A stretch of 20,000 bases of DNA, from positions 305,440 through 325,439 of the forward strand of contig NZ_MWQY01000001.1 in the NCBI RefSeq assembly GCF_002087085.1, given 5' to 3'. Below the pieces are notes generated by a model. That model ran no database searches, was not told the origin of the DNA, and was given only the letters and a program-made list of their open reading frames with translations. Both the position numbers and the translations under genes were made by a program. Positions within the stretch are counted from its first letter, which is position 1. The number at the start of each line of letters is the position of its first letter. Positions 8,798-17,082 of the stretch are shown here, piece after piece.

Positions 8798-9124
8798 CTA
8801 ATTCTCCTTGCTGTTTTCTTCAGTTCTATTTGCCCGGGAATCGGATCCGTCCCGGCTTGTTTTTTCGACTGCTTTATCAAAATTTGCTATTTCGCTTCTC
8901 ATCCGGGCATTGATGGCCCGAATCTCCTTCATCTCTTCTTCTATGCCGATCTCCTTCTCCATATTCCGCAGTTCACGTTTAGCCAGGGTATAGTAGTAAT
9001 ATGCCTTGGCCCAGATACGTCCCAGCCGCCGGAAGATTGCAGGTATCTCCTCCGGACGTACAAAGATGAGCAGAAGCAGACCGATGAGGAGAATTTCCTG
9101 AAAGCCGAGTCCCGCGGGGCCCAT
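8798..9124 (-). CDS. tatB: Twin-arginine translocase subunit TatB-like
   Basis: MGPAGLGFQEILLIGLLLLIFVRPEEIPAIFRRLGRIWAK fits the TatB N-terminus. The ATG at 9124 overlaps the tatC stop (TAATG). Confidence 0.85.
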   Translation of the reverse strand: MGPAGLGFQEILLIGLLLLIFVRPEEIPAIFRRLGRIWAKAYYYYTLAKRELRNMEKEIGIEEEMKEIRAINARMRSEIANFDKAVEKTSRDGSDSRANRTEENSKEN

Positions 9125-9900
9125 TAGCGTTCTCCCTCCCCGAAGCGGAATATCTTTGCTACAAAGATGGCCAGAAAGTAGAGCAAAATCAAGGGGGCGG
9201 CGATGATGCACTGGGAGATGAAATCCGGAGGGGTAATAAAGGCCGCCAGAATAAACACGAGCACGATTACAAAACGGCTTGCCTTGAATAGCGTTTTTCT
9301 CTCGAGGACATTGAGTATCATGAGGGCTTCCAGCAGGATCGGGAACTGGAAACTTACCATGATTATCAGAATAAAGCGGAAGATATAGAGGATGTTCCGC
9401 TGATAGTTGAGCATGAGACCGACGTTTTCCGGCAGAAACCCGCGGTTTGTAAAAAACTTTATCGTAAGCGGAAGTATTGTGTAGTATCCGTAATAGAAAC
9501 CCACACCCACCAGGAGGGTTCCGGTAAAGATGGCGAGGAAGAGCACCCTTTTTTCCTTCTTTCGTAAGGCCGGAAGAACGAAACGGACAATCATGAAGAG
9601 CATGACCGGGATGGACAGGGTAAAGCCGGAGAGGATTGAGACCTTCAGTTTGGTAAGGAATCCTTCAAAAAGGAAGTTTACAAAAAGGGTGTCCTCCGTA
9701 TTCAGACCTTCGATGGCCAGAAAGGGCGCATAGAGGAAGTTCACAATGGGGTCGAAGAAGTAGAAGCTGACAATGCTGAACAGCGCCAGGGCGGCGGCGG
9801 AGATCAGAATGACCGAACGCAGTTCCCGCAGGTGCTGGCGTACCGACAGCTGCAGCAGCTGCTCCTCTTCCCTGCTGAGTTTCTCTTTTTCGTCAGGCAT
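9124..9900 (-). CDS. tatC: Twin-arginine translocase subunit TatC
   Basis: HLRELR, FEGFLTKLKVS, FVLPALRKKEKR, SFQFP and AAFITPPDFISQ motifs are present, with about six hydrophobic segments. Confidence 0.95.
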   Translation of the reverse strand: MPDEKEKLSREEEQLLQLSVRQHLRELRSVILISAAALALFSIVSFYFFDPIVNFLYAPFLAIEGLNTEDTLFVNFLFEGFLTKLKVSILSGFTLSIPVMLFMIVRFVLPALRKKEKRVLFLAIFTGTLLVGVGFYYGYYTILPLTIKFFTNRGFLPENVGLMLNYQRNILYIFRFILIIMVSFQFPILLEALMILNVLERKTLFKASRFVIVLVFILAAFITPPDFISQCIIAAPLILLYFLAIFVAKIFRFGEGER

Positions 9901-10558
9901 AGGCCCGTCCTTTATTGAAGAGCAGGGGCCGGTCGGAGGAGATACGCCCGATTATTCCGACCCCCTGCTTCCGGGCTATCCCGCAGGCCCGGGTCGTGGC
10001 AATACTCCGGGAAACGATAAGGGGAAATCCACAGCGTCCTGCCTTTTCCGCGATCTCGGAGTTGACGCGGCCGGAGGTAAAGTAGATCAGGTTTGCCGGG
10101 TTCAGGCCGGTCAAAAGGGCTTTTCCTGTAACCTTGTCGAAGGCATTGTGCCGTCCCACGTCTTCGTACTGGGCGACAAAGCTTTTGCCGTCGAAAAGGG
10201 CGCTGCAGTGAATGCCGCCATGGGCCTTGTACTTCTCGGCACAGTCGAAGAAGTGCTGCATAAGGGCCTGCAGGTCGGTAAGCTCAGGTACTTTCAGATC
10301 CTGCACCGGCGGCATAGGGGTGGAGTCCTCCCTGTTGATGCTGATGTGGATGGTGATAGTGTCCGGATGAGTGGAATCGGTCTCATACTGCGACAGTTCT
10401 GCCGCACTGCGGATCAGACCATTACAGTACAGATGTCCGACAGTCAGCTCCCTGAGGGCCTCGGGGGTACAGTGAAAGCGATGCAGCAGTTCGTCTCCGG
10501 TGAAAAGAAAGACTTCAGATTCGGCAACCAGGGGTTTTGTCTCTTCCAGGGAAATCAT
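9893..10558 (-). CDS. fdhD: FdhD/NarQ-family Mo/W-cofactor chaperone (short; lacks the CxxC/SGCG loop)
   Basis: Motifs CTPEALRELTVGHL, GGIHCSAL, EDVGRHNAFDKVTG, FTSGRVNSEI and VSRSIATT are present. Confidence 0.88.
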   Translation of the reverse strand: MISLEETKPLVAESEVFLFTGDELLHRFHCTPEALRELTVGHLYCNGLIRSAAELSQYETDSTHPDTITIHISINREDSTPMPPVQDLKVPELTDLQALMQHFFDCAEKYKAHGGIHCSALFDGKSFVAQYEDVGRHNAFDKVTGKALLTGLNPANLIYFTSGRVNSEIAEKAGRCGFPLIVSRSIATTRACGIARKQGVGIIGRISSDRPLLFNKGRAYA

Positions 10559-11113
10559 TTATTGAATCTCCAGACTTTCCACAGATTCCCACTCCGCCAT
10601 GTATTTCGCCTGGGATTCATCCAGAAAATCAGCGGAGAACAGATAGCCATCGCCATTGGATGCCCTGGTAAGCCGGATGTCCCTGTAGTCCTCCGTATTC
10701 GATGCAAGTACTTCTGCAATCTGATTCAGCCGGCCGGGTTTTACCGAGAACGGGGCGTCAAGGAACTGGCTGAGTATGGTTGGCCGGGGATATGTCCTGG
10801 ATTCCCGCCTGACTGTGTGCACGATGAGCATTATATCATCTCCTTCGGCGGAAATATTCAGGATCTCCGCGTAGGAATCGGTCATCGAATTGCTGCTGTA
10901 ATAACGACAACATTCCTTTCCCTGAAATATGTGAATATCCGGACTCTCAATACGGGCCGCCGACTCGATTCTGGCTGCGATCATGTCCGGAGTAAACTCG
11001 GTATTGAAAAAACGAGAGCCGGCCGCAGCCAGCTCCCGATTATCAGTCAATCTGCCTTCCTGTGAAGCTTTTCGTATCTCTTCGGTAAGGAAGGCTTTTA
11101 CATCACCCCTCAT
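10559..11113 (-). CDS. ydhW: YdhW-family accessory protein of the YdhV oxidoreductase
   Basis: It lies directly after ydhV, as in E. coli ydhYVW. The YYSSNSMTDSYA and VRRESRTYPRP segments resemble YdhW-family proteins as I recall them. Confidence 0.7.
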   Translation of the reverse strand: MRGDVKAFLTEEIRKASQEGRLTDNRELAAAGSRFFNTEFTPDMIAARIESAARIESPDIHIFQGKECCRYYSSNSMTDSYAEILNISAEGDDIMLIVHTVRRESRTYPRPTILSQFLDAPFSVKPGRLNQIAEVLASNTEDYRDIRLTRASNGDGYLFSADFLDESQAKYMAEWESVESLEIQ

Positions 11114-11120
11114 GTACCTA

Positions 11121-13220
11121 TTATGCGGTTAAAAGTCCCAGCCGTTCAAGCTCATCAGCCACATCCTCCAGGTTGAGCCTGGTGAGCTGTGCCCTGGTGG
11201 GGATTCCCGTCTCTTCGTCCCATCCCATCTCGCGGTAGAAGAGGGTAAGGGCTGTGTCGTAGTCATCCCTGTCCAGCTTGATGGTTCCCTTGGTAAAAGG
11301 TTCCTTGTCCGGGTCCATATCGAACTGCCAGCCTGTAAGCTGATCATGATCCCGCCTGAGGTTGGAGGACTTCATCTGCTTGGCCGTCAATGCCCTGTGC
11401 AGGGTAAAGATTCTCTCCGCGGATTCATCGAGCTCCGCCTCGCTGACCTTGAATCCTGTTGCCATGGAGAAGAATTTTGCCTCCAGGCCGGTGTCTCCTC
11501 TATAGTTACGATCCTTGAGGGGAGATACAGTCATGGGCCACATCCAGTTGCAGAGGGTAAGGGAGTCGTGCAGTACGTTACGGACGATACTCCACTTTGT
11601 GAATTTCGCCTTTGCCTGGTTGGCCGGTGTGTAGTTGGCCACTTCGTCGATTGCTTCGGCTCCCCAGTGTTCGGCAGCTACCTCCTTCAGGATGTTCGTG
11701 GGAAGTCCGCTGAACAGGAAGTTCTGGTGGGTATGGCACTGGGCGTCCCGGTTGAACATGGAGGATATAACTCCTCCAACCACTCCGTCGGATTCATTGC
11801 TGTGGTGAACGGGATAGCCGAGTTTTGTCCAGAGTTTGTTTCCCTTGTAGCTCCAGTAGTCCTCGCCGAAGCCCCATTTTTTTGCAACGTACCAGGCTCC
11901 TTCGCCGAGGGTCGCCAGCTCTCCTTCCTTGAAGGCGATGCGTCGGTAAAAATCCTGGAAAAAGCTGATATCTCCCTTTTCGATCTTGTCCAGGGGCAGG
12001 GAGTTGTACTCATCCCGGGGAAGGACCTTTTCCAGATAGCCGTGATCGATGGCCCAGAAGAAGTCACGCCCCAGCTGCCCGTAGTTGCACCAGACGCCGT
12101 AGTCGTCGGCGATCTGCGCTCCCATGGAACGTCCGATAACATTGGCCTCGTCATTGGTTTTGCCCGCAACCTTGTAGCCTTTCATTACGCCGTTGGGAGA
12201 GAAAAACCCCATGCAGGTATTGGCCACATTCGGGCTGACGCCGTAGGCCTCCAGTTCGGGAACATGAAGGTGACTGTGACAGCGGACAGGGCAGGACGCG
12301 CATCCGCCCATACGGACGGTGTATTTTTCGCCCGCGGGACCAAGGTCCTTGATGGCTTTCATGGTACGGTAGCCGATCTTGTTGACTTCCTCCGGCCGGA
12401 CTTCTCCCGTTTCGATGGGATAGGGGGCTGCACCCCAGAAAAGCCCCTTCTGGGAAGTCCAGCGGCTGGAGGGATCATGGTACTCGGCCCAGGCCTGGGG
12501 AGTCGAGGGAACAACGTGCTGGTTGTTGGCCCCCACGATGGCAAAGGTATCCTTGTTCAGCTTGTGCCAGGCATTCCGGTCTCCTGCGATCTTTACCGAA
12601 CCGGTTCCCATGACGCCGATGGCCTTGAGGTTCTTGGAGCCCATTACACCGCCGTGTCCGCCTGCGGAGTGGCTGGCGCCGGTCCGGATAACCGAAAGGT
12701 TGACCTGGTGTTCACCGGCCTGACCGATGGCCGCAACCTGGGAGCTTTTTCCCATGATGGCGGTAATTCCTGCAATCGTGTTGAAAGTCCCGTCTCCCCA
12801 GAAAACTGAGGCGTCTTCCAGGGTGACGTCCTGGTCGACTATCCTGAGCCATACCGGCCGTTTTGCTTTTCCCTGGATAATGACAGCGTCATAACCCGCG
12901 TACTTCATCTCCACCGCAAAGTGGCCGCCCATGTGACTGTCGGAAACCCCGTGGAAGGGATTGGAGGGAAGAAGGCTGGTAATATTGGTCCGTCCGGAAC
13001 ACATGGCTCCTGTTCCCGTAAGGGGACCGACGCCGAATATTATCCTGTTCTCCTCAGCGAAGGGATGGGTCCCCTGGGGAACCTCGTCCCACATTACCTT
13101 GTAGCCGATTCCCATACCGCCTATGTAGCGGGAATATTTTTCCGTTGATTCTCTTGTTATCTGTTCAGTGCTCAGATCCACTCGAAGAATGGTTCCTGCC
13201 CAACCGCCTTTTAATGCCAT
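11121..13220 (-). CDS. ydhV: Aldehyde:ferredoxin oxidoreductase (AOR) family Mo/W-bis-pterin enzyme, YdhV type
   Basis: GWAGTILRVDLS, HMGGHFAVEMKYAGYD, GGVMGSKNLKAI, GANNQHVVPSTPQAWAEY, CASCPVRC and HDSLTLCNWMWP closely parallel E. coli YdhV. There is an AGGAG RBS and no signal peptide. Confidence 0.92.
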   Translation of the reverse strand: MALKGGWAGTILRVDLSTEQITRESTEKYSRYIGGMGIGYKVMWDEVPQGTHPFAEENRIIFGVGPLTGTGAMCSGRTNITSLLPSNPFHGVSDSHMGGHFAVEMKYAGYDAVIIQGKAKRPVWLRIVDQDVTLEDASVFWGDGTFNTIAGITAIMGKSSQVAAIGQAGEHQVNLSVIRTGASHSAGGHGGVMGSKNLKAIGVMGTGSVKIAGDRNAWHKLNKDTFAIVGANNQHVVPSTPQAWAEYHDPSSRWTSQKGLFWGAAPYPIETGEVRPEEVNKIGYRTMKAIKDLGPAGEKYTVRMGGCASCPVRCHSHLHVPELEAYGVSPNVANTCMGFFSPNGVMKGYKVAGKTNDEANVIGRSMGAQIADDYGVWCNYGQLGRDFFWAIDHGYLEKVLPRDEYNSLPLDKIEKGDISFFQDFYRRIAFKEGELATLGEGAWYVAKKWGFGEDYWSYKGNKLWTKLGYPVHHSNESDGVVGGVISSMFNRDAQCHTHQNFLFSGLPTNILKEVAAEHWGAEAIDEVANYTPANQAKAKFTKWSIVRNVLHDSLTLCNWMWPMTVSPLKDRNYRGDTGLEAKFFSMATGFKVSEAELDESAERIFTLHRALTAKQMKSSNLRRDHDQLTGWQFDMDPDKEPFTKGTIKLDRDDYDTALTLFYREMGWDEETGIPTRAQLTRLNLEDVADELERLGLLTA

Positions 13221-13239
13221 ATCTCTCTACTCCTGTTGT

Positions 13240-13890
13240 TTATACCTGAAAATGCTCTTTGTACTTCTGAATCGCGTCTTCCCAGGACACATACTGCAGT
13301 GCACCGGTGGGACAGTCCTTAACGCAGGCTGTATAGCCGTGGCAAAGGATACACTTGGTGGAAACATTGGTTTCCGGATCAAGGGTAGGAATGCCCCAGG
13401 GACAGGCTCGAACGCAGGTTCCGCAGCCGACGCATTTTTCCGGGTCAACCTCCCGGGCCCCGGTTCCTTCGTGTTCGAAGATCGCGTTCTCCGGACATGC
13501 CAGCGCACAGGCGGGCTGTTCGCACTGCCTGCAGGTATCGGCAACAAGGGTAAAATTACCCATCTCTCCGGGGCCGTTTACCCAGTCCCCCCGTACCCCT
13601 TTGGGGCCGTAGGCAAAGTTCTGACTTACCTTGATTCTTGCGGTAACCTGACTGGCTTTACCGTCGTTTCCAACCGAGCATGTAGCTTCACAGACCAGAC
13701 ATCCGGTGCAGCGGGCTGATTCGTGGATAATCATTCCATCGGCGGTTTCAAAGACTTTGATGTCCTTGGACGTACAGCCCGGCAGCAGCCAGGACATGGT
13801 CGTAGCCCCGATGGCGCTGATTCCTGTGTACTTGAGAAAATCTCTGCGGGTAATTTTCTGGTTCAGCAGTTGTGATTGAGTTTCGGACAC
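13240..13890 (-). CDS. ydhY: YdhY-type multi-[4Fe-4S] ferredoxin with a Tat signal and putative lipobox
   Basis: It has a TRRDFLK twin-arginine motif and LLPGC. Four Cys groups follow: CTGCLVCEATC, CRQCEQPACALACP, CVGCGTCVRACP and CILCHGYTACVKDCP. A GGGAGG RBS lies 6 nt before the GTG. Confidence 0.9.
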   Translation of the reverse strand: MSETQSQLLNQKITRRDFLKYTGISAIGATTMSWLLPGCTSKDIKVFETADGMIIHESARCTGCLVCEATCSVGNDGKASQVTARIKVSQNFAYGPKGVRGDWVNGPGEMGNFTLVADTCRQCEQPACALACPENAIFEHEGTGAREVDPEKCVGCGTCVRACPWGIPTLDPETNVSTKCILCHGYTACVKDCPTGALQYVSWEDAIQKYKEHFQV

Positions 13891-13904
13891 ACCTTACCTC
13901 CCTG

Positions 13905-14010
13905 TATTTTCTCCTTTCCAAATACGGGAGGCACAGACGTTTCCATCGGGACCTGGCGTCCGACAACCCTGGGACGGGCGTCCTGTAGGTTAATCGGATC
14001 GGAGATATAT
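13905..14010 (-). ncRNA. Moco RNA motif riboswitch candidate, variant lacking P3 (Tuco type)
   Basis: The minus strand reads CTCC-GA-[TCCGAT TAACCT...AGGGTT GTCGGA]-CGCC-[AGGT CCC GATG GAAA CGTC TGT GCCT]-CCCGTATTTGG-AAA-GGAG. The GCCTCCCGTATTTGGAAAGG segment matches the E. coli moaA Moco RNA as I recall it. It lies upstream of a Mo/W enzyme operon. Confidence 0.9.
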
Positions 14011-14016
14011 ATGTAC

Positions 14017-14045
14017 ATTCTAATCGAGATAAAAAGATATGTAAA
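14017..14045 (-). promoter_or_regulatory. Sigma70-type promoter of the ydhY operon
   Basis: The minus strand reads TTTACA (14045-14040), 17 nt, then TAGAAT (14022-14017). The predicted start near 14010 coincides with the 5' end of the riboswitch. Confidence 0.7.
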
Positions 14046-14305
14046 GAAATAAGGAATAGAAAATCGTATAAATGGTCGTTCTCTGCGCAAAAAATAAAAT
14101 AATTGAAAATAGATGTGAGTGTTTTACTAATAATGTGATATGGATTGTATTAATATTCTGACGTAGGGTTTTATCCTGCTGAAAATCCTGACGGCCCAGG
14201 ATATGGGAAAAAGAGCAGTTTTTGGAGCTGCCCTTATTATCTTCAATATCGTATAATTTTCCTGTTATCCGGCACGGATAATCTGTTAAGGGGAGAAGTA
14301 TTGCG

Positions 14306-14734
14306 TTGAGTGATTTTTCTGCTGCTGCAAGGGAGTTTTTTTCAAGATACGGAGAATTCGCCGCCTTGCTTGGGGGGCTTTCCCTTGTCCTGTTTTTCTT
14401 AACCCTGGTTGCCATACCCCTCATAATAGTATCCATTCCGGCTGACTACTTTATCCGGGACCCCGGAAGCCTGTCAGATAGACGGCATCCCGTATTGCGG
14501 GCAGCGGTTTTCGTCATAAAGAATTCCCTGGGTGCTGTTTTTCTTCTTGCCGGATTCGTCATGCTGTTTATACCGGGGCAGGGGCTTCTGACATTCATGA
14601 TTGGCCTGATGCTGATGAATTTCCCCGGAAAAAGAATGCTTGAACTGAAGCTTATTCGGAAGCCCCGGATCAGGGAGGCCGTGAACTGGATTCGGGTAAA
14701 GGCGAAACGGTCGTCCCTGGAGCTTCCCGAATAG
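14306..14734 (+). CDS. PGPGW-family small membrane protein
   Basis: SIPADYF, KNSLG...LAGFVMLFIPGQGLLTFMIGLMLMNFPGKR motifs are present. GGGAG lies upstream of the TTG start. Confidence 0.78.
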   Translation: MSDFSAAAREFFSRYGEFAALLGGLSLVLFFLTLVAIPLIIVSIPADYFIRDPGSLSDRRHPVLRAAVFVIKNSLGAVFLLAGFVMLFIPGQGLLTFMIGLMLMNFPGKRMLELKLIRKPRIREAVNWIRVKAKRSSLELPE

Positions 14735-14804
14735 GGCTTCTCTCCCCGGGTCCTTTCTCCCCCGGGAAGGTGCATCGCATGGAAATATTCTGTATACTGT
14801 ACCA

Positions 14805-15143
14805 GTGACCCGGAAATCCCCTTTCCCAGAGCGCGAACTGGCACGGCTTCTGATGGCTCTTCCCCGAATCGAAATCCAGAACCGCCTGTTAAAAGTCAGC
14901 GACAGGGAGCTTGCCCTGGCAATGCTGAATCTCGATGAAAATGAACGGTCAGGAATCTATGCGGCGGTGTCCCCCGAGAAAATCCGTAGGCTGCGGGAGG
15001 AACTGTCCATGCTGCGGCGGCTGAGGCTTCACAGAGAGGATTATCTCACGGCTCTCGCCAGGGTTATAAGCGTACTGGAAGGGCGGCCGTACACCGAGGT
15101 ACTGCGCTCCTATATTCGTCCCAGGGGCCGAAGGCCGGGATAG
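14805..15143 (+). CDS. Standalone FliG C-terminal-domain-like protein
   Basis: IQNRLLKVSDRELALAMLNLDENERSGIYAAVSPEKIRRLREEL resembles the FliG C-terminal ARM/helical region. It is only 112 aa. TATACT lies 6 nt before the GTG. Confidence 0.55.
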   Translation: MTRKSPFPERELARLLMALPRIEIQNRLLKVSDRELALAMLNLDENERSGIYAAVSPEKIRRLREELSMLRRLRLHREDYLTALARVISVLEGRPYTEVLRSYIRPRGRRPG

Positions 15144-15151
15144 ACTTTCGA

Positions 15152-15967
15152 TTACTTCAGACTCCGCCTGGCCCCTGCCAGGTCGGACTGAAAGGAGAGG
15201 AGCATATCCTCGATTTCACTGTTCGATATGGCCGACTGCTCTATCATTCGATTAAGGTTCTCTTTCAGGGCATCGTATTCCTGGAATACATCGAGTATGG
15301 ACTGAACGTCTTCCTGGACGGCGTCGGCGTTGTTCTTGCTTTCCTGGGTTCTTTCCAGCAGTTTTTTTACGGTTTCTCTGCTGGAGGAGACTTCATTACT
15401 GATGGAGTGCAGAATATTTACCAGCTGAAAGATAAGGTCGATCATTTCGTGCAGTTGCCCTGATGCCTGGTTTACGATTTCCCTCGACTGCACACCGTGC
15501 CGGCGAATCTCTTTTGCTACAACTGAAAAACCCGCTCCCTCTTTTCCTACCCGGGCAGCCTGAATCGAGGCGTTCATGGCCAGGATGTTGGTTATCTCCG
15601 AAAGATCTTCCACTTCCTTCAGTTTGTTCTGTGCCTCCTCCGCCTTGCTTTGAAGGATCTGTCCCAGTTTGTAGGAGTGGCCGAAGGACTGGTCGATGCT
15701 CGAGAAGTGGCTCTCCACCTCATTAATATAGTCCCGGGATACGAGAAAGGTTTCCAGGAAGCTGTTCATTCGGGTCTGGAAACTTGTACGTACCTTTTCC
15801 ACCGCATGGGTTATTTTTGAAAAGTGCTCATGGAGGTAGCGGACGGTAATATTCAGAAGCTGACTGCGGGAAATTATTTCGAAAACCACGGCATTGATTT
15901 TACTGGCGAAATAATGGAGCAGTTTTTTCCCCTTTGACGTCTGAATTCGTGTTTCGGTATGTTCCAT
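15152..15967 (-). CDS. Soluble methyl-accepting chemotaxis protein (signalling domain only)
   Basis: The hairpin-tip motif EITNILAMNASIQAARVGKEGAGFSVVAKEIRR is flanked by coiled coils. No TM segments are present. Confidence 0.85.
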   Translation of the reverse strand: MEHTETRIQTSKGKKLLHYFASKINAVVFEIISRSQLLNITVRYLHEHFSKITHAVEKVRTSFQTRMNSFLETFLVSRDYINEVESHFSSIDQSFGHSYKLGQILQSKAEEAQNKLKEVEDLSEITNILAMNASIQAARVGKEGAGFSVVAKEIRRHGVQSREIVNQASGQLHEMIDLIFQLVNILHSISNEVSSSRETVKKLLERTQESKNNADAVQEDVQSILDVFQEYDALKENLNRMIEQSAISNSEIEDMLLSFQSDLAGARRSLK

Positions 15968-15972
15968 ATCGA

Positions 15973-17082
15973 TTATTCTCCGATGAACAGTGCGGTAAGC
16001 GTCTGGTTATGGTGAGTAAATAGTTCTTCTCCGTAGGTGTTGAAACCGATGTAGGGAATTGAGGAGAATACCTGGTGAAAATCATCCAGTTTTTCGTCTT
16101 CCCTCATTTCCAGATAGCGGAGAACGCAGTTAAAGAGAATCACTCCCCCGAGGGGACTTACCTGGTCCCTTGCGCTCTGCAGCGCAGCTCTGGCATTAGC
16201 CAGAATGTCTCCCTGTCTGAGGAGGCGCATTTTTGTCCCCGCCTCGATGAAGCAATAGAACTGAAGCCCCTTTCCGTCTATGACAGCGTTCGGGCTGCGG
16301 GTGTATACCGTATCGCCGATTACAACCCCCAGGGGATTTCGTGAAAAATGCATGTGTTCAATTGCTTCCGGTCCTGAAAGCCCCAGCATCCTGGCATAAT
16401 AATCTGCAGCAGGTTCATGGTCTATCTCCCATACCACCCGTTTCTCCGGATCTGCCTGGGTAATGAGAAACTCCTTGTCCGTTGGAAGATAATGAACAAA
16501 GTGGTCGTAGAAAAAGGGGACCTTCATTTTCATGACCGCGACGCACACAGCATCACCGGATATCCGGGAGTCATGGGCGACAAGGGTCTCCGTAAAGGTC
16601 AGTTCGTCCGCGGCGGCTCCTCCAACCAGGGGAAAGGAGAACTTCCTGGCAGTTGAAAACTCCTTCATAACGAGTTCTCCCAGGGCAAGACCGTCGACGA
16701 GAACGATTCCGACATATTCTGCCGGGTTCACGTCGTCCGCAGGCAGCTGCCGGGAAATATCTTCGACGATTTCCTGTGCAGCCTTCCGAGGATCGCCTTT
16801 TACCTGTTCTCTGAACGAGGAAACTGCAAAATCGACCTCCTGTCCCGACAGCGACAGCGCCGTAAATCCCCGTTCCATGGGTCCCTGTGGTCCCCAGCCG
16901 CCGATCATTGATGCACCCAGGCATACGGCTTCGGGGAAGCGGTCTTTGACGCTTGTCTGAATATTCCGGTCCCTGTAGTCGACGGAAAAGAAATACAATA
17001 CAATCCTTGTATCCGGCTGATAAATTGAATCCAGTACATGGGATATGTCGAAATCGGCCGTAGCCGCGCTTAGTACTGCCAT
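15973..17082 (-). CDS. FIST N+C domain sensory protein (NosP-like)
   Basis: FIST-type motifs include YFFSVDY, LGASMIG, GIVLVDGL, VGGAAADELTF, VWEIDHEPAADYY, FNCVLRYL and GFNTYGE...HHNQT. It ends 5 nt before the MCP start. Confidence 0.88.
   Translation of the reverse strand: MAVLSAATADFDISHVLDSIYQPDTRIVLYFFSVDYRDRNIQTSVKDRFPEAVCLGASMIGGWGPQGPMERGFTALSLSGQEVDFAVSSFREQVKGDPRKAAQEIVEDISRQLPADDVNPAEYVGIVLVDGLALGELVMKEFSTARKFSFPLVGGAAADELTFTETLVAHDSRISGDAVCVAVMKMKVPFFYDHFVHYLPTDKEFLITQADPEKRVVWEIDHEPAADYYARMLGLSGPEAIEHMHFSRNPLGVVIGDTVYTRSPNAVIDGKGLQFYCFIEAGTKMRLLRQGDILANARAALQSARDQVSPLGGVILFNCVLRYLEMREDEKLDDFHQVFSSIPYIGFNTYGEELFTHHNQTLTALFIGE

Follow-up and report, generated by a model that had tools for sequence, protein, structure and literature searches.

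We analyzed a 20,000-nucleotide (nt) stretch of contig NZ_MWQY01000001.1 (assembly GCF_002087085.1, positions 305,440–325,439), which stems from a marine spirochaete and is termed the window in the following, and whose minus strand carries a molybdenum/tungsten cofactor (Moco/Tuco) riboswitch aptamer in the leader of an operon that starts with a ydhY-like ferredoxin gene and continues with the gene of a YdhV-type aldehyde ferredoxin oxidoreductase (AOR). A first-pass annotation of the same DNA had recognized this motif and proposed that it is wired as a cofactor-activated ON switch. An Infernal search with the Rfam model RF01055, in which a covariance model score reaching or exceeding the curated gathering score across the entire model counted as membership, yielded a match at 13895–14016 (−) with a score of 67.2 bits (gathering score 36; E 1.7e-14). 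The alignment covers model positions 1–135, skipping only the 15 columns of stem P3, and comprises the helices P1, P2, P4 and P5 as well as the family's characteristic junction and loop sequence (CCUCCC..UUGGAAAGGAG), every conserved core position of the family being present. This confirms the element as a full-length, P3-less Moco/Tuco riboswitch aptamer and an ordinary member of the known family. It lies in cis, the match ending 19 nt 5′ of the start of the ydhY-like gene, with the YdhV-type AOR gene next (Table 1). A promoter-like site further upstream would place the transcript start at about 14012–14008, a few bases 5′ of P1; the site is a mere consensus match, the promoter scan having returned 3 sites in the region versus 1.7 expected.

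Table 1 Positions of the leader elements and of the operon genes in the window
Feature	Position	Strand	Basis or remark
Promoter-like site TTTACA-17 nt-TAGAAT	14017..14045	−	10/12 consensus matches
Moco/Tuco aptamer (RF01055), without P3	13895..14016	−	Rfam
P1 5′ strand UCUCC	14001..14005	−	Rfam alignment; forms in the nascent-RNA and P1-enforced folds
Stem P2, internal loop and apical hairpin	13959..13998	−	Rfam alignment, nascent-RNA fold
Stem P4	13929..13954	−	5′ strand 13954–13944, GAAA loop 13943–13940, 3′ strand 13939–13929
P5 and loop	13918..13928	−	CC 13928–13927 with GG 13919–13918; conserved loop CGUAUUU 13926–13920
P1 3′ strand GGAGA	13910..13914	−	Rfam alignment; sits in the loop of the alternative hairpin
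Hairpin 5′ arm, anti-Shine-Dalgarno	13920..13940	−	Last A of the GAAA loop, P4 3′ strand, P5 5′ strand and P5 loop
Hairpin 3′ arm	13889..13909	−	AAAUAC (complement of the P5 loop), bulged A13903, Shine-Dalgarno, spacer, G and U of the start codon
Shine-Dalgarno GGGAGG	13897..13902	−	6 nt 5′ of the start codon
ydhY-like (WorS) 4Fe-4S ferredoxin, GUG start	13240..13890	−	Twin-arginine motif TRRDFLKY; NCBIfam NF007382 181.9 bits, below cut-off 213
YdhV-type aldehyde ferredoxin oxidoreductase (WorL)	11121..13220	−	Pfam AFOR_N, AFOR_C; NF007354 1086.3 bits, above cut-off 868
YdhW-family protein	10559..11113	−	NF007411 104.6 bits, below cut-off 203; no Pfam match
FdhD-type sulfurtransferase or cofactor-insertion helper	9893..10558	−	Pfam/NCBIfam
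TatC	9124..9900	−	Pfam/NCBIfam
TatB-like protein	8798..9211	−	TIGR01410 36.8 bits, below cut-off 56.5

Competing folds of the leader

The two complementary stretches on which the proposal had been based, UGCCUCCCGUAUUU (13933–13920) in the aptamer core and AAAUAC-A-GGGAGGUA (13909–13895) downstream of it, are both present. Their pairing buries the Shine-Dalgarno (SD) sequence GGGAGG (13902–13897) in a hairpin and leaves GGAG of the P1 3′ strand (13914–13911) in a 10-nt loop. Whereas the annotation had described this hairpin as about 14 base pairs (bp) with one bulge, the 14 bp with A13903 bulged out form only part of a longer helix, in which ACGUCU (13940–13935) additionally pairs with AGGUGU (13894–13889), adding 6 bp with G13934 unpaired to give a total of 20 bp. 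Folding of the 43-nt stretch gave −18.2 kcal/mol (z −5.06), with 0 of 200 dinucleotide shuffles being as good, and that of the extended hairpin −21.1 kcal/mol (z −4.61), again matched by 0 of 200 shuffles. The 20-bp hairpin covers the SD together with the first two bases (G and U) of the start codon GUG (13890–13888). The best duplex of this SD with a 16S-type anti-SD motif amounts to −12.4 kcal/mol.

Since the 5′ arm consists of the P4 3′ strand, P5 and its loop, hairpin and aptamer cannot coexist. The mutual exclusivity that had been postulated thus holds for P4 (13939–13929) and P5 (13928–13927 with 13919–13918), whereas P1 is not directly excluded, its paired 3′-strand bases (13914–13910) being left unused in the 10-nt loop. 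Reading the hairpin as a transcription terminator was rejected, as there is no T-run 3′ of it and no terminator-like site on the minus strand.

The nascent 103-nt RNA (14012–13910, to the end of P1) folds into the P1/P2/P4/P5 architecture of the Rfam model at −33.9 kcal/mol. With 22 nt more (125-nt RNA), the minimum-energy fold flips to the anti-SD hairpin at −44.0 kcal/mol, about 10 kcal/mol better, and the 151-nt leader has the same minimum-energy fold, in line with the two-fold scheme of the annotation, the aptamer being best for the nascent RNA and the anti-SD fold for the full leader. Ensemble energies derived from the partition function were −49.6 kcal/mol unconstrained, −42.0 kcal/mol with four P1 pairs enforced and −47.8 kcal/mol with the P1 5′ strand blocked, for which the predicted mean probability of the SD being unpaired was 0.13, 0.65 and 0.13, respectively. 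The SD and start region is hence sequestered by a strand that the aptamer itself needs (13940–13920 with 13909–13889), and the ribosome-binding site (RBS) is predicted to be accessible once the aptamer has formed. Modeled in this way, the layout would be off by default and open when the aptamer holds.

Conservation of the pairing and survey of related leaders

Of the 5 other genomes in the genus, 3 carry the same leader, as do L061 (98%) and the metagenome contigs L262 (98%) and L263 (87%). The closest named relative carrying it is Candidatus Marispirochaeta associata (L062), with a YdhY 84% identical, the other close YdhY matches belonging to Spirochaetaceae; scans of genome contigs and metagenome contigs recovered the leader only in L061, L062, L262 and L263. 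Five distinct leaders, three of them near-identical, could be aligned without ambiguity. For the 20-pair structure, 93.0% of the 100 cells are standard pairs, compared to 37.8–57.9% when the 3′ partner is slid by 1–3 columns. Two pairs show double changes: an A-U to G-C exchange in the complement of the P5 loop, where the loop reads GUGUUU instead of GUAUUU, and a C-G to U-A exchange in the outer stem of L263. Shuffled controls reached two double-change pairs in 25 of 500 cases, the paired percentage in 16 of 500 and the covariation score in 18 of 500, so that covariation across five sequences with three near-identical ones suggests the pairing with modest strength. The hairpin of the metagenome ortholog L263 folds at −22.4 kcal/mol (z −5.25). 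Its C-to-U change in the P4 3′ strand still pairs (G-U) within P4 and is matched by a G-to-A change in the hairpin; as the change is kept in both structures, both folds appear to be under selection.

Two further alignments were set aside. A2, containing the row of a distant leader (G040) that MAFFT had shifted by one column, was uninformative, and in A1, comprising 11 ydhY and AOR leaders, MAFFT lost the SD register across the different spacer lengths, and no pair counts were taken from it. An additional leader, L264, was read by eye only and appears short and promoter-proximal. Contigs from four metatranscriptome runs cover parts of 13000–13836, within the coding region only and not the leader, and short metatranscriptome matches at 13910–13947 have unlike flanks, representing the conserved aptamer core of other organisms.

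The genome contains three RF01055 matches, in the leaders of ydhY, moaA and a tupA-like gene. In the P3-less moaA leader and the P3-containing leader of the TupA-family gene, the sole SD is the GGAAAGGAG of P1, with the coding sequence following 8–11 nt later. These two leaders thus share the OFF layout known from E. coli moaA (PMC2408646). In the tupA-like leader, the most stable state is the aptamer, with −60.0 kcal/mol both unconstrained and with P1 enforced.

Three genomes of the genus have moaA leaders (L001, L035, L043) that contain no in-frame ATG, GTG or TTG between P1 and the codons of the radical-SAM CxxxCxxC motif; the frame is open from P1 onwards and all three read GGAGAGAAUAUCAAAGA. 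In the absence of a canonical start in frame, moaA probably starts at a non-canonical AUC or AUA located 5–7 nt after the P1 SD.

For a wider comparison, RF01055 matches were collected from 61 genomes of Spirochaetia (26 with a match, 61 matches), 150 genomes of Clostridia (19 with a match; 52 of the 53 listed matches kept, one below the cut-off dropped) and 151 genomes of Desulfobacterota (34 with a match; 72 of 78 kept, three below the cut-off and three truncated ones dropped). Of these leaders, 181 of 185 have a downstream open reading frame (ORF), the genes being named by Pfam, NCBIfam or BLAST to named Spirochaete proteins; 99 of the 120 clostridial and desulfobacterial leaders with an ORF are long (>60 nt) and fall outside the layout classes. 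Within the Spirochaetia, whose leaders are related and hence do not count as independent, the SD lies in P1 with the start 7–17 nt after P1 in 28 of 34 leaders of supply genes (transport or cofactor synthesis), including three moaA leaders with a presumed non-AUG start. The corresponding number for enzyme genes (AOR, ferredoxins of the twin-arginine translocation (Tat) type, small ferredoxins) is 0 of 18, and the local minimum-energy fold of 13 of these 18 leaders has the SD base-paired to the aptamer core. Subtracting the value with P1 blocked from that with P1 enforced gives a two-state difference of 0.19–0.53 in five of five short Tat-ferredoxin leaders, of 0.26–0.33 in all three AOR leaders of one type and of 0.24–0.57 in four of four short AOR leaders of Desulfobacterota. 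In long, terminator-bearing leaders of Clostridia and Desulfobacterota (e.g. L182, L254, L186), the terminator forms in both constrained states.

Across the ydhY and AOR leaders of Spirochaetia and Desulfobacterota, the core:SD hairpin is the local minimum-energy fold in 9 of 10 cases, with z values between −5.4 and −3.0 for six of them, −2.75 and −2.57 for two, and 0.0 for L199. The segment preceding the SD tracks the sequence of the P5 loop, as seen in the loop:pre-SD combinations GUAUUU:AAAUAC, GUGUUU:AAACAC, GUUUG:CAAAC, CGUGUUU:AAACACG, CCCGUGUUUG:CGAACAUGGG, CCCUUUC:GAAAGGG and CCCUUU:AAAGGG. Cognate core:tail duplexes average −18.3 kcal/mol compared to −15.8 kcal/mol for swapped ones (9 lineages, permutation p 0.00125), and unrelated AOR leaders of another phylum share the design, namely L217 with 15 contiguous bp, L224 and L199. 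The conservation anticipated by the annotation was thus observed at two levels, the pairing being kept with compensatory changes in orthologous leaders and rebuilt in non-orthologous AOR leaders.

In three AOR leaders of a second type (L044, L055, L015), a local hairpin (e.g. AGCACC with GGUGCU) takes in part of the SD and the AUG, with a 5′ arm that overlaps an extended P1 3′ strand (GGAGAGC), an arrangement that may represent a different ON design.

Reading of the leader as a probable ON switch

Based on the folding and the comparison, which alone give the direction, the element is probably a translational ON switch for the Tat-exported operon of YdhV type (Class V tungsten oxidoreductase, WOR) comprising ydhY/worS, ydhV/worL, ydhW, fdhD, tatC and tatB. 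In the proposed mechanism, the aptamer would be transcribed first and fold before the competitor strand exists. The P5 loop is unpaired in the free aptamer, and AAAUAC, as the complement of this loop, could act as a toehold unless ligand occupies the core: without cofactor it would dock on the loop and displace P5 and P4, burying the SD and the GUG start and turning translation off. With cofactor bound, the core would be locked in the aptamer and the 3′ tail would stay single-stranded for ribosomes to load, such that apo-enzyme would be made and exported only when the pterin cofactor is available. The same aptamer class would meanwhile shut off moaA and the tupA-like transporter gene via the SD inside P1. 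A comparable ON logic is found in translational ON riboswitches of other classes, such as the add adenine riboswitch of Vibrio vulnificus, in whose ligand-free state a portion of the aptamer is base-paired to the SD and start region until ligand binding captures this strand and thereby frees the RBS. The aptamer and the ligand of add are unrelated, and the switching strand in the window consists of the P4 3′ strand, P5 and its loop rather than the P1 3′ strand.

Several observations weigh against this reading. Compatibility with the aptamer costs the ensemble 7.6 kcal/mol relative to the unconstrained state, so the switch would have to be kinetic or ligand binding would have to pay this cost, as the gene would otherwise be permanently damped. 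Any strong SD is complementary to the CCUCC in the core of the aptamer; part of the complementarity therefore comes free, and only the extra 6 + 6 bp are informative. Covariation among the strict orthologs is thin, with two pairs, a number reached by 25 of 500 shuffles, and adding the distant G040 leader with its one-column shift lowers the paired fraction to 84.8% with one double-change pair, 113 of 500 shuffles reaching the score. The 700 nt upstream of the YdhY orthologs at 66–68% identity and of two Collinsella homologs (L063–L065, L066–L067) contain no RF01055 match, which, as the former lack the aptamer, points to riboswitch control being a lineage-specific addition. Among the surveyed enzyme leaders, the two-state difference is about 0 in the three second-type AOR leaders L044, L055 and L015 and 0 or below in five small-ferredoxin leaders, L216 does not form the hairpin, and the L199 hairpin is no better than shuffles (z 0.0); the generalization that all enzyme leaders are ON was rejected on the missing two-state signature of these second-type and small-ferredoxin leaders and the missing hairpin of L216. 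Finally, the sequestor and complementary region described for the wor1 leader of Eubacterium limosum form a layout that is usually read as OFF (PMC11725836).

The energy gap could also stem from a hairpin that always wins, constitutively holding down the translation of a costly, exported enzyme or stabilizing the mRNA, with the aptamer acting elsewhere (Rho, RNase) or being vestigial, and the restriction of the metatranscriptome contigs to the coding region would fit as well. We consider such constitutive damping unlikely: with a score of 67.2 bits the aptamer retains every conserved core position and recurs in no fewer than five distinct orthologous leaders, its fold forms in the nascent RNA ahead of the competitor strand, and the C-to-U change of L263 preserves a G-U pair in P4 while being matched by G-to-A in the hairpin. 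Even less probable is a conventional OFF switch, in which the bound aptamer, located 11 nt upstream of the SD, blocks the 30S subunit sterically or by a tertiary contact with the tail. Such a switch would agree with all tested or described family members, which read as repressing (PMC2408646), and with the sequestor layout of the E. limosum wor1 leader (PMC11725836), but the tail is predicted to be open with P1 enforced (SD unpaired 0.65), no sequestor hairpin is possible within the 24-nt tail, and the conserved, covarying anti-SD pairing would be left without a role, because the gene would be off in both states.

A comparably low probability applies to complementarity arising by chance or as a by-product, with the core CCUCCC pairing any strong SD and the extension being a functionless accident at the genus level. 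Indeed, 6 of the 20 bp are CCUCCC:GGGAGG, and the near-identity of the three closest orthologs renders their conservation uninformative. Against this stand the 0 of 200 shuffles reaching the hairpin energy, the two compensatory pairs, the recurrence of the design with different loop and complement sequences in AOR leaders of another phylum (L217, L224, L199), and the advantage of cognate over swapped pairs (p 0.00125). An ON platform using the aptamer core as anti-SD is thus supported by the folding, limited covariation, recurrence in another phylum and the OFF contrast within the same genome, being neither proven nor universal among enzyme leaders.

A further, tentative possibility is that the Moco/Tuco aptamer might serve as a two-way controller of a regulon, OFF for supply (moaA, tupA-like; SD in P1) and ON for the Tat-exported enzyme (SD paired to the CCUCCC core), with the P5 loop as ligand-gated toehold and, in relatives, OFF before genes of NAD-dependent aldehyde dehydrogenases (ALDH), such that a tungsten-free isoenzyme would be replaced by the tungsten enzyme once cofactor is at hand.

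Known systems, ligand and genomic setting

According to Regulski et al. 2008, expression platforms of the family have the RBS in P1 or contain terminators, and motifs also occur before genes of cofactor-using enzymes; no mention of activation was found in the available text of this paper (PMC2408646). The annotation's premise of a repressed E. coli moaA with the RBS in P1 agrees with it (PMC2408646). The E. coli moaA riboswitch likewise comprises P1, P2, P4 and P5 with the CCUCCC...GGAAAGGAG core in the 5′ untranslated region of a cofactor-related gene under translational control; it possesses P3, its RBS is inside P1 and the cofactor represses (PMC2408646). Unlike this RNA, the window leader lacks P3 and has a second SD 11 nt beyond P1, whose pairing with the core predicts activation.

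In E. limosum, Tuco riboswitches precede wor1, tupABC, two iron transporters and focA; under tungsten limitation the aldehyde-oxidizing activity drops below 10% with wor1 mRNA unchanged, and translational control of wor1 has been proposed via an RBS sequestor and a complementary region, the available main text giving no sign of regulation (PMC11725836). The wor1SLXABC operon resembles the present case in its P3-less aptamer before a tungsten oxidoreductase operon and in transporter genes carrying the same riboswitch class (PMC11725836). It differs in having a separate RBS-sequestor hairpin with a complementary region overlapping a 5′ aptamer helix, whereas in the window the 3′ core of the aptamer is itself the anti-SD, and in its enzyme, a cytoplasmic bifurcating WOR1 compared to the Tat-exported YdhV type. 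Expression of E. coli torCAD requires the bis-molybdopterin guanine dinucleotide cofactor, for which an ON-type riboswitch was hypothesized by its authors, and thus offers an experimental precedent for the idea of a molybdoenzyme operon being expressed only if the cofactor can be made (PMC10845959). No RNA element is defined for torCAD in the available text and the torC leader is unlike the moaA motif, whereas the sensor in the window is an identifiable RF01055 aptamer.

Full-text literature searches, which covered few subscription journals, found no description of an ON-type Moco/Tuco platform, and no ON case was found in Weinberg et al. 2007, in reviews or in other papers naming the riboswitch. 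The new part would lie in the predicted ON wiring of a known aptamer family with the core as anti-SD. If true, an aptamer wired for translation activation would be a concrete and mutable sensor by which synthesis of apo-molybdo- and apo-tungstoenzymes could be matched to cofactor supply. Such logic would suit a Tat-exported enzyme: proteins cross by the Tat pathway in folded form and already carrying their cofactors (PMC13328260), so that any apo-enzyme synthesized when cofactor is lacking would be wasted. Repression, the sole demonstrated behavior of this riboswitch class, would then be half of its repertoire, and annotation would gain a simple sequence rule for the sign of regulation, depending on whether the SD lies in P1 or pairs with the core.

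The sensed molecule could be either the tungsten or the molybdenum form of the cofactor. The window motif lacks P3, a feature for which Regulski et al. 2008 described a correlation with the use of tungsten (PMC2408646), and the genome contains a gene of a TupA-family binding protein; E. coli YdhV binds the bis-Mo-molybdopterin cofactor (PMC9103625; PMC13328260). Even the E. coli RNA is without demonstrated direct binding of its ligand (PMC2408646). Within this genome, the only P3-containing RF01055 motif (L003; G000:C75:167044-167190, −) lies before the TupA-family (PBP_like_2) gene and P3-less motifs precede moaA and the AOR operon, which does not fit a simple split of P3 for molybdenum and no P3 for tungsten.

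The N-terminus of the ydhY-like protein (...ITRRDFLKYTGI...) bears the twin-arginine motif, and its GUG start at 13890 is fixed by an in-frame UAA at 13896–13894 and by full-length matches of the orthologs from residue 1. The start listed for the TatB-like protein overlaps tatC, and its real start is therefore probably further downstream. The operon corresponds to Class V WOR, with a YdhV-clade WorL and a WorS with Tat signal, as judged by profile score and motif rather than tree placement. In the 2026 classification, the Class V (clade 41) layout comprises WorL, a Tat-signal WorS, W and nearby tat genes, with Mo or W being possible (PMC13328260). The E. coli ydhYVWXUT and C. somerae CsWOR41LSW operons share a WorL that is an equivalog of YdhV, the Tat-signal WorS, YdhW and adjacent tat genes, and the window operon differs from the Class V operons described there in having fdhD, tatC and tatB in one gene string behind a riboswitch (PMC13328260). 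The word riboswitch occurs 0 times in the paper presenting this classification (PMC13328260).

In L040 and L049 (Spirochaetia) and L143 (Clostridia), P3-less motifs that have their SD in P1 are immediately followed by genes of NAD-dependent aldehyde dehydrogenases (Aldedh). This OFF layout is found in three of nine ALDH-linked motifs, the other six having long leaders, and suggests a cofactor-driven swap between tungsten-free and tungsten-dependent aldehyde-oxidizing enzymes. The commonest gene behind RF01055 in Spirochaetia encodes a secreted protein of about 470 residues, in which SBP_bac_8 follows an extra N-terminal region of about 140 residues. This family accounts for 13 of the 61 matches (L005, L008, L010, L014, L016, L017, L019, L028, L032, L041, L046, L048, L056), nearly all with the SD in P1, and may be involved in the uptake of molybdate, tungstate or the pterin.

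Hydrogenase-related genes were also observed behind RF01055 in Desulfobacterota and Clostridia, namely the NiFe hydrogenase small subunit (L205, L230) and FeFe hydrogenase or HoxE/NuoE-like genes (L162, L150, L181), all with long leaders, and may belong to formate dehydrogenase-hydrogenase complexes. Tandem RF01055 motifs spaced by 100–200 nt (L020, G027:C195:8-307; L188, L189, L201, L208, L260) precede genes for Tat ferredoxin, small ferredoxins, AOR and MoaB/MogA-like proteins. Upstream of the promoter-like site in the window, the region 14020–14844 contains two putative minus-strand ORFs without family matches (14020–14436 and 14446–14844), overlapped by a putative plus-strand ORF with a weak PGPGW match (14306–14734), and genes with a FIST domain and for signaling by methyl-accepting chemotaxis proteins follow further upstream at 15152–17082.

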